A stretch of DNA of 64,000 nucleotides. It comes from Planctomycetota bacterium. Lineage in GTDB: Bacteria > Planctomycetota > PLA2 > JAEUHO01. Where the stretch lies: positions 448,001 to 512,000 of the forward strand of contig CBDCTJ010000003.1 in NCBI GenBank assembly GCA_965222115.1. Direction: 5' to 3'. The notes beneath the pieces are model-generated. The model worked only from the letters and a program-made list of their open reading frames with translations, was not told the origin of the DNA and did no database searches. A program made the position numbers and the translations under genes. Shown piece after piece: positions 34,037 to 40,634 of the stretch. The first letter of the stretch is position 1. Every line of letters begins with the position of its first letter.

Positions 34037-34357
34037 ATGCTCACTGACCCCGATCCCGATGTGCAAGCGCTTCTGTCGGCCGGGCGCAATGCGGAAGCGC
34101 GCAAAGAGAGGCTCGGAGAGCTCCTCTTTCAGTACCGCGCACGGCTTTTGCGGGTGGTCGAGCTGCGGATGGATCCCGTATTGCGCGCTAGGCTCGGAGC
34201 ATCGGACGTGGTGCAAGATGCGTATGTAGAAATCGCCCGCCGTGTCGATCGCTACCTCAAGGCGCCCACCATGCCCTTTTTCTTGTGGGCGCGCTTCATC
34301 ACCGTTCAGCGAATCCTGAAGGCGCATCGCTTTCATGTGAGTGCCCAGCAACGAGAC
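34037..34357 (+). pseudogene. Planctomycete-type ECF sigma-70 factor, 3'-truncated at MITE copy 1
   Basis: YRARLLRVVELRMDPVLRARLGASDVVQDAY..MPFFLWARFI..HRFH..AQQRD, then MITE TIR; region 4 absent. Confidence 0.85.
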
Positions 34358-34678
34358 ACGGTGTACGGGCAAAATCCACACTTTTCTTGTCCTTATGGAG
34401 TGCGATGCGCACTCCTCTAGCGACGTGTAGATCATCGATGGAGCGTTCGTGTGAGACCGAAGCACCGGTGGGGTATCGAACTTTTGAGAACTCTTTGCGG
34501 TCGGCATGATGCATAGCTGATCGCAGCGGCAACGGACGCAAACACTGTGGACTGCACACAACAAGTATCATTGCCGATATGTGTGAATTTGCTTCTGACG
34601 CTGTACTCCTGCACACGGCATTCGCGCTGTTGACTGAACGCTGCCCTACGAAAGGTGTGGATTTTGTCCGTACACCGT
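34358..34678. mobile_element. MITE copy 1 (24-bp TIR ACGGTGTACGGRCAAAATCCACAC)
   Basis: TIRs 34358-34381 and 34655-34678 (23/24 complementary); interior homologous to copy 2 but about 90 bp shorter; no transposase. Confidence 0.88.
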
Positions 34679-34680
34679 AT

Positions 34681-35579: not shown

Positions 35580-36689
35580 CTACGCCTCCGGCAGGACCGT
35601 CAGTAGCAGAGCAGCCATTCGTACATGGAGGACCCGGGCTTCTTCGGCTGTCAGTTCAGACGGGACTCGGTGAACCGATTCGTCGAACAGCTTCAAGAAC
35701 GGACCCACAGCGTCGACGTCCGTGGCGACGTACTTCTGCATGGAGGCCGTTTCTTGCCTGGCAATGAAGCGAATCCTGGCCTTGCGCGTTGGCTTGCCAT
35801 TGCTGAAGTCCTTCGGGTCCGTCGACCAATCCTGAACCTTGTCATCCGGGGAGAGGGTGTGCAGCACGTATCGGAAGAGCTCGCGCAACGAGGCGCCAAC
35901 ATGGCGTGCGACATCCGGCCCGCCCGCGCTCAATGCGGCGGAGGCGCCCTCCCAAAGGCTGACGCACTCCGGATCGAGCGCTGTGAGTCGGTCCACGAGC
36001 ACCACCTCCGTCTGGTCGAGAACGAGCGTGGTCTGCGCTTCGGCATCCTCTTCGAGCTCGGGCTCGCGGTCTTCGCGGGGGAGCGTTACGACTTCGGCAA
36101 GCCGCGAAGCCACAAATCGCTCACGTGCAACGGTCGCGGCTGTCTGCAGCCGCACGTGCGTCTCAAGCGATGCTGCCCCAAGCTCCGCGAGTACGTCCGA
36201 CTCTGCAGCCCAGAGACGACCGAGTTTCGCGTCGATCTGTGTGGCGGCAGCCCAGTCTGACGGGACCAGGCCGCCAATCTTCAGCCCGGCCATCTGATCC
36301 GCGAGGCGAGAAGAGATCGACAGTGACTGCTCGAACGCAGCCAGAACTTTCGCAGACTCCGCCAACGTTGAGGCGTACCCCGGCAGCTTCGGGGTCGTTG
36401 CCTTGGCCAAGGCGTCTAGCTGGCGCTGGGATGCGTTCTGGATCTCCTGGAACTGCTGGCTGACGCGAGTCACGGAACTTGCGACCTCAATCGCCTTGAG
36501 ATTCGGAGCTGACAGCTGCTCCAAGCGCCGGGTCTGCTGGGCGATCTGCTCCACAACGTGCATTGCGCTGGCTGACTTTGCCATCTCCTGCATCGTCGTG
36601 CCAAGAAGGCGGGAGTTCTCGATCATCCTGACAAAGGCCTCGGTGGCGCGCATGTGCGCCATCAGGGCTGAACTGTCGTGCTTAGCCAC
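35580..36689 (-). CDS. Protein with helical low-complexity N-region and C-terminal predicted pPIWI-associating nuclease-like (pP_pnuc_1) domain
   Basis: LWEGASAAL..GPDVARHVGASLRELF..VLHTLSPDD.V..W...NGKPTRKARIRFI; GTG start with GGAG RBS. Confidence 0.65.
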   Translation of the reverse strand: MAKHDSSALMAHMRATEAFVRMIENSRLLGTTMQEMAKSASAMHVVEQIAQQTRRLEQLSAPNLKAIEVASSVTRVSQQFQEIQNASQRQLDALAKATTPKLPGYASTLAESAKVLAAFEQSLSISSRLADQMAGLKIGGLVPSDWAAATQIDAKLGRLWAAESDVLAELGAASLETHVRLQTAATVARERFVASRLAEVVTLPREDREPELEEDAEAQTTLVLDQTEVVLVDRLTALDPECVSLWEGASAALSAGGPDVARHVGASLRELFRYVLHTLSPDDKVQDWSTDPKDFSNGKPTRKARIRFIARQETASMQKYVATDVDAVGPFLKLFDESVHRVPSELTAEEARVLHVRMAALLLTVLPEA

Positions 36690-36845
36690 GGTCTCACTCC
36701 CGGTCCTTGTGCGCCCCCGCACCGGATCATACCGGACGAAATACGGAGATGGGATGAAAAGGCCGGTAGCTCCTCTGTCGCGCAGTCACGGTAAACCGTG
36801 CTGCAAACAATAAACGGGCTCTACGGCCCAGGAGGAGCTACCAGC

Positions 36846-37895
36846 ATGCATAAGCGTATCACCGAAACGATTGGCATCGACTTAGGCGACCGATTCTCTT
36901 GGTATTGTGTCTTAGATCAAGACACGGGGGTTCAGAAGGAAGAAGGCGAGATAGCGACAACGCGCGAATCGTTTCACGAGTTTCTCTCGAAGCACCGAAC
37001 CGCTCGAGTTGTGATGGAGGCGGGAACGCATTCGCCTTGGGCGAGTCGGGTCGTCGAAGGTCGATGTGCTCAGTCGCTAGTCGCGAATCCGCGAGAGCTA
37101 AGCTTTATTTACAGGAACGCTCGCAAGTCCGATCGAACGGATGCCAAGAAGTTGGCTGAAATCGGTCGCTTCGATCCCCAACTACTTGCCCCAATTCGGC
37201 ATCGACCGGAGTCCGCACAACGAGACCTTGCGCTGATTCGTGCACGAGCCGCGCTTGTGTCGTCACGAACCAAGTTGGTGAACTCGCTACGAGGTGTCAT
37301 TAAGAGCATGGGCGGGCGGTTGCGTAAGCAGGCATCAAAATGCATCGGATCGAAGACGCGGGCCGAGATTCCGGAGGAGCTCTGCGATGTGCTCAATCCC
37401 ATTCTCAGTGCAATCGAGCGAATCACTGAGTTGGTAAAGATCTACGACGCAAAGATCGATGAGTTGGCGAAGGAGCGATATCCAGATACACAGTTGCTCA
37501 CTCAGATTCCAGGCGTGGGCAATCTCACGGCACTCGCATTCATGTTGACCGTTCAAGATTGGGCGCGGTTTGAAGACCGCCGAGATGTCGGGGCGTTTCT
37601 CGGGATGGTTCCACGGCGTGATCAATCCGGCCAAATGGACAAGCAGCTACGCATAACGAAGGCTGGGGACCGTATGGTTCGGTCGTTGCTCGTTCAGTGC
37701 GCGCATCACATCCTCGGGCGACTGGGCCCGCCATGCGATCTAAAGTCCCACGGTGAGCGGATCATTGCGCGTGGAGGCGCAGTTGCGAAACGCAAGGCAG
37801 TCATCGCCGTGGCACGCAAGCTCTCCGTGCTCATGCTTGCGCTGTGGCGAACAGGCGAAGAGTACATACCGGTTCGATGCCCAGTGGCTGCCTGA
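36846..37895 (+). CDS. IS110-family DEDD transposase / bridge recombinase
   Basis: IGIDLG, VVMEAG, KSDRTDA (DEDD), IPGVG, FLGMVPRRDQSG (catalytic Ser), AVARKL; RBS AGGAGG. Confidence 0.97.
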   Translation: MHKRITETIGIDLGDRFSWYCVLDQDTGVQKEEGEIATTRESFHEFLSKHRTARVVMEAGTHSPWASRVVEGRCAQSLVANPRELSFIYRNARKSDRTDAKKLAEIGRFDPQLLAPIRHRPESAQRDLALIRARAALVSSRTKLVNSLRGVIKSMGGRLRKQASKCIGSKTRAEIPEELCDVLNPILSAIERITELVKIYDAKIDELAKERYPDTQLLTQIPGVGNLTALAFMLTVQDWARFEDRRDVGAFLGMVPRRDQSGQMDKQLRITKAGDRMVRSLLVQCAHHILGRLGPPCDLKSHGERIIARGGAVAKRKAVIAVARKLSVLMLALWRTGEEYIPVRCPVAA

Positions 37896-37953
37896 ACCTC
37901 GCGCAACAGCTTTAGGCAAGCATTAGAAAGGTCAGTTTCCACGTACCCCAATT

Positions 37954-38101
37954 CGAGTCCGGGTGACTGCGGTGCCCTGACCGACGTATAGCGACGTCGC
38001 TACTGAGTATGCAGCACCCAGACTCGTTCTCGGACCCCACCTTGCACCGGGTCGCATCAACTTCGATCCAACACGAGTGCGCATAGAAGCCTGAATGGGA
38101 C
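37954..38101 (+). ncRNA. Predicted bridge/seek RNA core (target-binding and donor-binding loops)
   Basis: Stem 37954-37965/38015-38026 enclosing an 11x11 internal loop; second loop with cccacct (38036-38042) and catagaag (38082-38089) matching the IS circle junction. Confidence 0.75.
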
Positions 38102-38726
38102 GTGTTTTCTGGCGCCAGTGACGATGGCTGGCAATTTGATTCGCTCCGATCCGCTGCCAGAAAGGCAAGGGCGATAAGGGTAAGTTGCGTACTCAAGGGG
38201 CCGAACTACACATGCACAACGCGGTAAATGCGCTCGCCGACGCGGCTTCGCACTTGACATGCCAGGCCTTTTCATAGAAGTACGGGAAAAATCCACACTT
38301 TTCTTGTCCTTTAGGTGCGCCATGCACGCTCCTCTAGCGACGTGCAGTTCATCGATGAATTGTTCGGTCGAGATAGACGTCGCAGATGGGGCACCAAACT
38401 CTCAAGCTCTCTTTGCGCTGGGCAAGCCAGTCGAATTCGATCGCCAGCATGCCTCATGGTCATTGCAATGATCCTACTTCGTCACGTCGACATAGTCACT
38501 CGGCACGATCGGAATGACGCATAGCAGATCGCAGCGGCAACGGACGCAAACACTGTAGACTGTACACAACAAGTATCGTTGCCAATAAGTGTGAATTTGC
38601 TTCTGACGCTGTTCTCCTGCACGCAGCATTCGCGCTGTTGACTGAGCGCTGCCCTACGACAAGTGTGGATTTTTCCCGTACACCGTATTCTTGCGGAACG
38701 CGGTGCGGCGCTAGGCCACGGAGTGG

Positions 38727-39947
38727 TCAGCAGGCGATCTCCGAGACGGTCAGATTGCCTTTACCGTCACGGCAGAAGATCGTGGTGTCTCCGTCCGTGG
38801 AGACCACAAGGCCGAAAGAGTCCGAAACGCGGCTTGTCGCACATGCGATCGACTTGTGTCTCGTCCCCTTCTTGCGCGACTCCAAGAACTCCCGGACCCC
38901 AGGCGGTAGGTCGGGGTATGCATCCTCCGCAAGCAGCTTGCTGCCGACACCCAGGGGACGGAGCATGGGTCCGAGAACCACTGCCCCGTCGATGCGCGTC
39001 GCGTGGCAGAGACGCACGACCTCGTCGTCAGCCATTCGCGCCGACGTCAGCATGTGCTGGGTGTACGGATGCTTCAGTGCTGGCGGCGGCGCCGGAGGAT
39101 CGGCGGGGTCGATAGCACGGCACGCGAGCGACTCCTGCAACCCCCCCGACCAGTCATCGCCGGCCGACTTCAAGGCGTTTGCCTGGTCTACACACTTCAG
39201 TTCGTCGAGCGACGCGGCGCAGGTGACCAGTACCCCGGCGCCGCCGCCGAGTCTCCTTGCCGACCGCGCTAACTTGAGCAGGGACTGTCCCAAGCCATGA
39301 GCGATGCCAAGCAGCAACGGTGCGTCGGCACGCACGACCCAGTCGGCCTGTTCTTCCGCAGTGAACAGACTCCTATGCAGGTCGCCGGCGCGGAGTTGAA
39401 CATCCCAGCTGGAAATCAGCAGGTATGCGGGCGGGATCACCGTCCCCACTTCGATTAAGGTGGCTGGGCGTCGGCACGCCGTCTTCAGGAAGACAGCTTC
39501 ACCGTCGGCGTTCTTGACATACAGCTCCGCGACGTCCCGCAGCTCTACGACACAGCCCGCTCCCCACTCGAAGGCATGGCCACTCACGAAGTTCGCAACT
39601 TGACGGGAGACGATGCCACGGACACGAAGCCCATCGTTGCTCCCTTCGATGACGAATGCCGTCTCCCACGGATCGAAAGCCGAGCCGACTTTGCGAAGCC
39701 AGTCCACTGAAACGGAGGGCTTCTGCGAGAACTCGACGAGCAAGTTCAGTGTGGCGTCGGCGGGAAGCAGGAGAAACGACCCGCACGGCACGCGCCCCTC
39801 TTCCCGGTAGAGCCCGGTCTCGTAGAGCAGATCAAGCAACTCGGTCGTCGCGGGAGGCCACGGCAAGCGGTCACTTTCAGCGAGATGCTCTTGCGCCGCG
39901 TCGAGTAGTGACGACGCGTCAAAGCGCCGATAGCCTGCAGTAGCCAT
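38727..39947 (-). CDS. Diadenylate-cyclase (DisA_N/DAC) domain protein with DACNV-type N-terminal sensor
   Basis: LYETGLYREEGR N-motif; IDGAVVL and GTRHKS..VVSTDG DAC motifs; RBS GGAGG. Confidence 0.8.
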   Translation of the reverse strand: MATAGYRRFDASSLLDAAQEHLAESDRLPWPPATTELLDLLYETGLYREEGRVPCGSFLLLPADATLNLLVEFSQKPSVSVDWLRKVGSAFDPWETAFVIEGSNDGLRVRGIVSRQVANFVSGHAFEWGAGCVVELRDVAELYVKNADGEAVFLKTACRRPATLIEVGTVIPPAYLLISSWDVQLRAGDLHRSLFTAEEQADWVVRADAPLLLGIAHGLGQSLLKLARSARRLGGGAGVLVTCAASLDELKCVDQANALKSAGDDWSGGLQESLACRAIDPADPPAPPPALKHPYTQHMLTSARMADDEVVRLCHATRIDGAVVLGPMLRPLGVGSKLLAEDAYPDLPPGVREFLESRKKGTRHKSIACATSRVSDSFGLVVSTDGDTTIFCRDGKGNLTVSEIAC

Positions 39948-40029: not shown

Positions 40030-40079
40030 CGTTTCTTCCCACCAAGTAAGTGACTCTAGACCTATGCGCATTCAGAGAT

Positions 40080-40585
40080 TCGGTGTGCGGGCGAAGTCCA
40101 CACGTTCTGTATTGCTCGGCGAAGTCAGAGGCATCTTGCCCACACGAAATGAGTGGAGGATCGGGGAAGAGTCGGAACTTCTGTGTAAGGCATGTCGTCC
40201 GATCCAAAGCCGAGAGAATGCACCGTGGCTCAACGTAAAGAAGAGCGAGCCCGTAGGCGTTACTGGTTCGAGCCCAGTAACGCACACCAACGAGTTCTCC
40301 TCCTTCTTAGCAATAGCCCAACTCACGCCATACTGGAGCCCCCCAAAATGGCAAGTTCCATGCTGCGACAAAACACGTGACCGCTTCTCAGCCACTTTGG
40401 CTGCCGAGCCGCCAACAGCTTGCGTCGACGGACTAATCTTTGGTCATTCAAATGGTGGGCTAATTTGTGGTGCGTATCAAGTCGTGTCGAATTGCCTCGG
40501 ACTGTCAAGGAAACGCTGCACTAGGCGTCCGCCCTGGTGACTGTGCGCTGTCCTACTAAAGGTGTGGATTCTGCCCGTGAACCGT
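40080..40585. mobile_element. MITE-family copy 3 (degenerate TIRs, different interior containing a tRNA-Val fragment)
   Basis: Left tcggtgtgcgggcgaagtccacac; right gactgtgcgctgtcctactaaaggtgtggattctgcccgtgaaccgt matches the right ends of copies 1 and 2. Confidence 0.7.
40244..40289 (+). repeat. Degenerate distal copy of the tRNA-Val 3' end (att-like)
   Basis: agcgagcccgtaggcgttactggttcgagcccagtaacgcacacca vs 23946-23991 (4 mismatches in 46). Confidence 0.85.
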
Positions 40586-40634
40586 ATCTTCAGAGCAATG
40601 AACACCGTTTTCGCATCCCGAAGCAAACTGTAGA

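Follow-up and report, generated by a model that had tools for sequence, protein, structure and literature searches.

We investigated a 64,000-nt window (C3:448001-512000, forward strand of contig CBDCTJ010000003.1) of the 4.55-Mb genome, in 7 contigs, of a Planctomycetota bacterium (assembly GCA_965222115.1), in which an insertion sequence (IS) of the IS1111 group, encoding a transposase of the bridge recombinase type, interrupts one end of a pair of inverted repeats. The pair resembles a miniature inverted-repeat transposable element (MITE), and positions given without a contig refer to the window. Read directly, the left junction is AAATACGG-AG-ATGGG-ATGAAAAGGCC, with its AG at 36747-36748, and the right junction is GGCCTTTTCAT-AGA-AG-TACGGGAAAAATCCACAC, with its AG at 38279-38280; both were found in the sequence at or near the places where an earlier reading of the same DNA (the original prediction) had put them. 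The boundaries of the IS were derived by comparing the flank sets of three full copies, and place the IS proper, counted with one AG, at 36749-38280 (1,532 bp). The original prediction had given the span 36741-38298, which does contain the IS but takes in a few repeat bases on each side. A repeat finder recovered the 11-nt arms of the IS (36754-36764 and 38265-38275, pair I15, 100% complementary) and, outside them, the 24-nt arms of the interrupted pair (38280-38303 and 38658-38681, pair I1, 96% complementary). With the IS taken out, the flanks read ATACGG AG TACGGGAAAAATCCACAC, and the reverse complement of 38663-38688 is ATACGGTGTACGGGAAAAATCCACAC. The rebuilt 26-mer is identical to this inverted right end at 25 of 26 positions, the sole difference being an A for a T at the first core base, and the claim that an IS1111-type recombinase gene had entered the terminal repeat of the pair exactly is confirmed, as is the identity claimed for the site without the IS.

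The assignment of the element to the IS1111 group was borne out by its protein domains, by the layout of its inverted repeats and by its downstream non-coding region. The transposase matches PF01548 (DEDD_Tnp_IS110, the N-terminal, RuvC-like DEDD domain) over residues 9-154 (E 3.8e-18) and PF02371 in its C-terminal part (E 4.1e-22), scores 220 bits against the NCBIfam model NF033542, "IS110 family RNA-guided transposase" (cut-off 140), and resembles PDB chains of the ISCro4 and IS621 transposases in its C-terminal domain. In the available part of PMC11187229, the IS1111 group is defined by sub-terminal inverted repeats of 11-13 bp, a left extension of 7 bp and a right one of 3 bp, a long non-coding region downstream of the gene, a transposase of 330-350 aa and the motif G(L)-P----S/T-G. 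We found every one of the features that distinguish IS1111 from IS110: perfect 11-bp inverted repeats, a left extension AGATGGG (7 bp) and a right extension AGA (3 bp), with the AG counted on the left side, 385 nt of non-coding DNA downstream of the transposase gene, a product of 349 aa, and the sequence GMVPRRDQSG, read in the translation, which corresponds to the group motif. The original prediction had also proposed an AG recombination core, and AG is common to both junctions in all three full copies; it is all that the junctions share, and no longer target-site duplication was seen.

We identified the target of the window copy as a dispersed 33-nt repeat (consensus ATACGGTGTACGGGCAAAATCCACAC), which was found only in the window genome among the genomes searched. 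Its 26-mer occurs in 22 copies at no more than 3 mismatches in this genome (0 for a reversed-pattern control) and in none of 40 related genomes, and only positions -3 to +31 are conserved across 29 copies with no more than 5 mismatches. Most copies are solo, and some form inverted pairs 300-510 bp apart, including two neighbouring pairs in the window (Table 1) and a further one at C7:1562805-1563170. The pairs at 34356-34680 and 36741-38688 are 77-91% identical in their internal sequence, and the latter would measure about 424 bp without the IS, with repeats of 24-26 nt, so that in terminal inverted repeats, size and copies it conforms to a MITE. That label, used in the original prediction, is nevertheless only partly apt, because the repeat is often solo, with only the 33-nt module conserved, and because neither a target duplication nor a cognate transposase was found. 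No direct repeat shared by the flanks of the two pairs at 34356-34680 and 36741-38688 was seen on direct reading, and no transposase domain was detected in a 3.2-kb inverted pair of the repeat (C7:2452649-2455857) or beside the other copies examined, in a search that was not exhaustive. As no duplication was seen and no link to a transposase, an integron integrase or the Y1 transposase examined was found, the accurate description is a MITE-like pair of a dispersed 33-nt repeat.

The repeat also occurs in arrays, many copies standing 15-110 nt after stop codons, and in mosaics with other repeat modules, as in repetitive extragenic palindromic (REP) sequences and the mosaic elements built from them (BIME). 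Same-orientation arrays of the 26-mer were identified at C7:2273503-2284328 and C7:641845-669589 (loci L021, L023 and L024), with copies 0.2-16 kb apart, and the genes before the array repeats are unrelated (PAP2, 23S_rRNA_IVP, DUF7684 and others). Two known types of system were considered for the repeat and set aside. For a REP sequence moved by a REP-associated tyrosine transposase (RAYT), the self-complementarity is limited to GTGT..ACAC, and the single Y1_Tnp gene examined, at C7:1411691, has no flanking repeat. For an integron attC site, the best match to TIGR02249 scores 86 bits against a cut-off of 265, and no integrase was found beside the array at C7:2273-2285 kb.

We then compared the right end of the IS with those of its relatives, which were obtained from a protein search of the 40 related genomes, with 10 related loci examined. 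Eight of these ten carry a homologous sub-terminal repeat, ATGAGAAGGCC, at both ends, with proteins 44-61% identical to the window transposase; L008 and L009 (46% and 54% identity) lack this shared repeat and were dropped from the guide analysis. The downstream regions of the eight share a scaffold with that of the window IS. One of them, L007, was left out of alignment A1, and its 3' loop side was wrongly extracted; L005 has no left flank because its contig ends there. The structure alignment accordingly holds eight sequences, the window IS and seven relatives without L007. Their consensus consists of two units, each of a stem, an internal loop and a second stem, in which 94.8% of the cells are paired and 8 pairs have changed on both sides; this was reached by 0 of 500 shuffles, and slid controls gave 29-43% paired. 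These comparisons predict a two-loop bridge RNA, or seekRNA, in the right end of the IS at 37955-38095.

The putative guides within the two loops follow the flanks and the ends of each element. On the 3' side of the donor loop, AT(A/G)GAA(G/C) is identical, in all 9 elements and across its three variants, to the right terminus of the element that carries it. At the left-guide position of the target loop, three relatives (L003, L006 and L011) are identical over 7 nt to their own left flank plus core. At the right-guide position, the anchored exact match to the element's own right flank is 5-10 nt long in six of the nine elements (2, 5, 6, 10, 3, 9, 9, 8 and 1 nt for the nine), and pairings with the right flanks of other elements give mostly 1-3 nt, reaching 5 nt or more in 5 of 72. 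The guides of the window IS stand in the order reported for IS1111 seekRNAs, in which the complement of the top strand lies 5' of that of the bottom strand, the reverse of IS621/IS110 (available part of PMC11187229). The protein alone could in theory pick the target, with the conserved right-end structure doing other work, such as transposase regulation or promoter activity, and the outward-facing TTGACA is indeed promoter-like content in this end. We give that explanation hardly any credence, since the stems are conserved but the loop sequences differ according to the flanks and terminus of the element, and since experiments have demonstrated RNA guidance in four members of the IS1111 family (PMC11187229, in the part available).

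One relative, L003 (G015:C32), belongs to another genus and has 60% protein identity; its left guide, ATACGGAG, equals the left half of the window genome's repeat plus the AG core. The target of L003 itself, GTACGG-AG-GCGGGAAAAG, resembles the repeat of the window genome, and no such repeat family was found in the L003 genome. A search for a homologous repeat in the relatives' genomes G015, G013 and G018 gave nothing above control. An exact-word search had also offered CGTACTC (38188) as a target guide; it was rejected because the relatives lack this segment and because it lies in the 3' module, outside the conserved loops.

Taken with the junctions, these loops make it very probable that the IS1111-group element is active, or was so until recently, and is RNA-guided to a variant of the 33-nt genome-specific repeat, and that the window copy lies in a near-cognate member of that family with an AG core. 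The guide loops are identical in all three full copies. The left guide TACTGAG agrees at 6 of 7 positions with the site of the window copy, or copy 1 (TACGG-AG), and at 7 of 7, with a U.G wobble, with TACCG-AG. The right guide GGTGCCCTGAC has 9 contiguous nucleotides complementary to TCAGGGCA, a variant of the repeat that occurs at C1:482161 (ATACGGTGTCAGGGCAAAATCCACAC). The sole genomic site that fits both guides, again with a U.G wobble on the left, is C7:69899 (ATACCGAGTCAGGGCG...), an unoccupied member of the repeat family. Of 34 family members at no more than 6 mismatches, counting the occupied one, 24 have the core TG, 5 AG, 4 CG and 1 TT, and the occupied copy therefore belongs to an AG-core minority.

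Table 1. Features of the IS, of the interrupted pair of repeats and of the two neighbouring pairs (window positions; I6, I15 and I1 are pairs listed by the repeat finder)
Feature	Position	Strand	Basis
Uninterrupted paralogous MITE-like pair, 151 bp shorter internally	34356..34680	.	BLAST, mismatch scan, joint skipping 151 bases
Left target half ATACGG, at the outer edge of the MITE-like pair's left terminal repeat	36741..36746	+	Direct reading; fits outer end of 26-mer family
Left AG core dinucleotide	36747..36748	+	AG at both ends of all 3 full copies
IS1111-group insertion sequence, 1,532 bp with right-hand AG	36749..38280	+	Two more full copies at ~98% identity; flank comparison
Left sub-terminal inverted repeat ATGAAAAGGCC	36754..36764	+	Pair I15, 11 nt, 100%; homologous ATGAGAAGGCC in 8/10 related loci
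Left-end hairpin, 14-nt arms, 93% complementary; 3' arm covers GGAGGAG right before ATG	36762..36845	+	Pair I6
Transposase (bridge recombinase) gene, 349 aa from ATG; open frame starts at 36798	36846..37895	+	Pfam, NCBIfam, PDB similarity, motif
Predicted target-binding loop: outer stem, internal loop, top stem CGACG/CGTCG	37955..38025	+	Consensus of 8 elements, compensatory changes
Putative right-target guide GGTGCCCTGAC, loop 5' side, complementary to top strand G-TCAGGGCA(C)	37971..37981	+	Relatives' own right flanks; repeat variant C1:482161
Putative left-target guide TACTGAG within CTACTGAGTAT, loop 3' side, top-strand sense	38000..38010	+	Relatives' left flanks plus core
Predicted donor-binding loop	38029..38095	+	Consensus helices 3 and 4
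Putative donor guide CATAGAAG, identical to IS right terminus 38273-38280	38082..38089	+	Same rule in 9/9 elements
191-bp 3' module between direct CATAGAAG repeats, also found alone	38090..38280	+	Two solo copies on C1
TTGACA, outward-facing -35-like hexamer, 5 nt before right sub-terminal repeat	38254..38259	+	Same place in L002-L004
Right sub-terminal inverted repeat GGCCTTTTCAT	38265..38275	+	Pair I15
Remainder of MITE-like element: right target half TACGGGAAAAATCCACAC..., body, right terminal repeat 38663-38688	38281..38688	.	Pair I1; BLAST to paralogue 34356-34680
Third, more diverged inverted pair of the 26-mer	40078..40587	.	C3 488078(+) 4 mismatches, C3 488587(-) 3 mismatches

Whole-genome BLAST recovered three full copies of the IS, which are about 98% identical or more: the window copy, copy 2 (C7:506866-508420) and copy 3 (C7:2360461-2362002). 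Their left flanks are AAATACGG, AGATACCG and CACACTTG, and their right flanks TACGGGAAAAATCC, GGCAAAATCCACAC and TCCGGGTAACGGG, respectively. The original prediction had held that further copies should not lie in unrelated targets, which proved right in part: copy 1 is in the repeat, copy 2 in a member of the same family that is shorter by 4 nt, and copy 3 in unrelated heptamer-repeat DNA. The right flank of copy 2 could be explained if a cognate ...AG-TC-AG-GGCAAAATCC site had lost the 4 nt between its AGs. BLAST also recovered partial copies, namely tandem right-end units (C7:2359812-2360468) and, on C1, two solo right-end pieces and two decayed left ends. The two solo 3' modules, like several contig ends at the IS right end in metagenome runs, lie in a second repeat family, GATACC(G/A)(T/A)G-CCGCGTTTTTTC, which has an uninterrupted AG-core copy at C1:602987; the left half-site of the two left-end remnants is the same as that of this family. 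Eight left junctions could be compared in all (three full copies, two left-end remnants, two solo modules and one metagenome-run contig end), and seven of them read ATAC[CG][GA]-AG, some of the events perhaps not being independent. Real insertions are strict for the left half-site and the AG core, and loose for the right half. The specialisation on a MITE end family claimed in the original prediction gains a mechanism, because the predicted target-binding loop matches the repeat, yet only the left half-site is common to seven of the eight junctions.

Several results weigh against guidance by the predicted RNA to this repeat. For the RNA itself, Rfam gave no match between 36600 and 38800 at E up to 1, and folding the right end as a single sequence gave nothing better than its shuffled versions did (z-scores 0.35 and 0.19), for which reason the structure was taken from the comparison of relatives. 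The left end of the IS agrees with the donor loop's 5' side at only 6 of 8 positions here, and less well in the relatives, so that no right-donor guide was assigned. For the target, the 14-mer implied by the guides is not enriched genome-wide (210 sites at no more than 3 mismatches, against 239 for the reversed control). The right half matches poorly at the real sites, with 6 of 10 positions for copy 1 (2 contiguous), 2 of 10 for copy 2 and 7 of 10 for copy 3, and the right half of the second repeat family has no match to the right guide; copy 3 lies outside any repeat family. Four sequencing runs of one study contain the region as low-depth contigs, and neither a circle junction nor an empty site is among the run-contig joints listed, although contigs cannot exclude either.

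The looseness of the right half also bears on a simpler explanation, by which a short left half-site (TAC-N-G/A-AG) alone would be recognised, the location in a repeat end being incidental and the repeat family not a specialised target. Four unrelated classes of right flank occur, the IS also uses a second repeat family and one non-repeat site, GATACC-N-AG occurs 142 times in the genome, which is about the chance expectation, and half-match insertion, to which the loose right-half matching here bears a likeness, is documented for IS621 (source available in part). We nonetheless regard recognition of the half-site alone as unlikely, given that 9 contiguous nucleotides on the loop's 5' side are complementary to a variant of the very repeat that is occupied, and that the same loop side in the relatives matches their own right flanks. 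Moreover, the 14-mer has no exact genomic site and four sites within 1 mismatch, of which two are members of a family estimated to make up well under 0.1% of the genome.

Assuming guidance to a variant of the 33-nt repeat, the following cycle can be proposed. As in the rest of the family, the DEDD recombinase would excise the IS as a circle, joining the right end CATAGA-AG to the left end ATGGGATG and so creating CATAGA-AG-ATGGG, and the IS would reinsert by conservative recombination at the AG core. Transcription of the 385 nt downstream of the gene would, again by analogy with the family, yield the guide RNA. The donor loop of this RNA would carry CATAGAAG, the copy of the right terminus; in its target loop, the 3' guide UACUGAG would read the left target plus core on the bottom strand, and the 5' guide GCCCUGAC the core G plus TCAGGGC on the top strand. 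The two guides together would spell TAC(C/T)G-AG-TCAGGGC, a variant of the 33-nt repeat, and the window copy would have landed in a near-cognate AG-core member, the left terminal repeat of the MITE-like pair. Roles can also be proposed for two further features of the IS. The region just inside the left sub-terminal repeat may pair with GGAGGAG in the left-end hairpin, blocking translation of the transposase, and the outward TTGACA would, by analogy, be one half of a promoter formed at the circle junction.

We additionally identified by-products of recombination, and the solo modules bounded by CATAGAAG and the tandem joints are evidence of recombinase activity at AG. The solo 3' modules, at C1:602195-602388 and C1:603929-604122 (locus L027), are inserted at GATACCA-AG-CCGCG and bounded by CATAGAAG. 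Next to copy 3, at C7:2359812-2360900 (locus L026), the 324-bp unit corresponding to 37957-38280, which comprises the guide loops and the right end, is present three times in tandem, with joints that read CATAGA-AG-TCCGGGTGAC (CATAGA-AG-TCCGGG). On the sequence of these joints, the array is a product of recombination of the right end with the internal look-alike CGAG-TCCGGGT at 37953-37963. In the sequencing run X4, one contig runs along the IS interior as far as 37362, where it passes into the outer end of a member of the repeat family (AATACGGTGCCAGG...). This single contig hints at a repeat-ended element, or a rearrangement, interrupting an IS copy in another sample.

Modules derived from the IS do spread alone, as solo 3' modules and tandem arrays, and short partial duplications such as GATACGGAG precede several copies of the repeat, both of which might suggest that the repeat ends themselves are carried or generated by the IS, for example as co-moved flanks, and that the supposed MITE is a by-product of IS activity. 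This is very improbable: 33 uninterrupted family members without adjoining IS sequence stand against three copies of the IS, the paralogue at 34356-34680 is an intact pair that contains no IS, and the commonest core of the family is TG and not the AG of the IS. The partial duplications, which repeat the outer end (GATACGGAG or GATACGGTGAA), lie directly upstream of full copies at C7:653160, C7:645811, C7:2281163 and C7:669589.

A bolder idea, to which we attach a slight probability, is that repeats ended by GATAC(C/G)G-NG are substrates that IS1111-type recombinases spread and rearrange, amounting to an integron-like shuffling of cassettes between target repeats. Three observations fit it: the repeat follows each gene in same-orientation arrays (C7:2273-2285 kb, C7:641-670 kb and the window), partial duplications of the left half-site lie upstream of several copies, and recombination at look-alike AG sites has demonstrably given rise to tandem guide-RNA arrays and solo modules.

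Homing of IS1111-family elements to a repeat or a MITE is already established, and the window IS is a further example. In Coxiella burnetii, QMITE2 harbours 20 of 21 copies of IS1111, and the bases that the MITE lacks occur on the opposite side of the IS (PMC5896051, available in part). As there, an IS1111-family element occupies a fixed position in a small, repeated, non-autonomous element; in QMITE2, in so far as it is described in the text available, the target is a palindromic REP of the GTAG type inside the MITE, and direct repeats lie at the QMITE2 ends. Here, in contrast, the IS targets a 33-nt module that is not palindromic and forms the extreme end of the pair, without direct repeats, only one of the three full copies lies in a family member of intact length, and the host differs. 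This host is probably a planctomycete-like bacterium, as its genome has a PSD1 domain, which none of 14 control genomes contains. IS1111-family members with sub-terminal inverted repeats reportedly also insert at one position in the inverted repeats at the ends of transposons from the Tn21 family, Tn21 being a Tn3-family transposon and the end of that family measuring 38 bp. The present target is, by contrast, a dispersed 33-nt repeat for which no transposase was found.

Other members of these groups target short repeats too: according to partly available sources, ISPa11, ISPpu9, ISPpu10 and IS621 target REP sequences, and ISKpn4 and ISPst6 target attC sites. The likeness lies in a bridge RNA or seekRNA, here predicted, that directs the element to short species-specific repeats. 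Unlike REP and attC targets, the repeat studied here has no evident palindrome, is associated with no integron integrase, and does not flank the Y1 transposase gene examined. The solo 3' modules have a counterpart in ISPpu9, whose 3' module downstream of the transposase gene (the ssr9 module) also occurs alone in the genome, consistent with separate circles arising at repeated end sequences (PMC12288879, available in part). Unlike that of ISPpu9, the module here is 191 bp long, bounded by CATAGAAG and located downstream of the predicted guide loops. Among the papers listed for IS1111 together with MITE, nothing on the target repeat family was found; supplementary target lists may be relevant.

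The element is a clearly dissected natural example of the IS1111 type from a little-studied, planctomycete-like lineage, in which both target guides and one donor guide are predicted from comparative data. Its combination of a strict left guide and AG core with a loose right guide bears on the off-target rules of bridge recombinases in genome editing. The threefold tandem array of the guide-RNA gene and the solo 3' modules are, in addition, natural examples of recombination at internal look-alike sites.

Finally, we considered the surroundings of the element. No Argonaute/PIWI gene was seen in the scanned 27-47 kb stretch of the window. The MITE-like pair and its IS separate two minus-strand genes, at 35580-36722 (-) and 38727-39947 (-), one encoding a pPIWI-associated nuclease domain (PF18165) and the other a sensor domain of the DACNV type (PF21751). 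Mosaic intergenic repeats abound in the genome, for instance at C1:96767-97067, and a module of about 170 nt (with CTCACGCAGAGGCGCAGAG) has about 60 BLAST matches.

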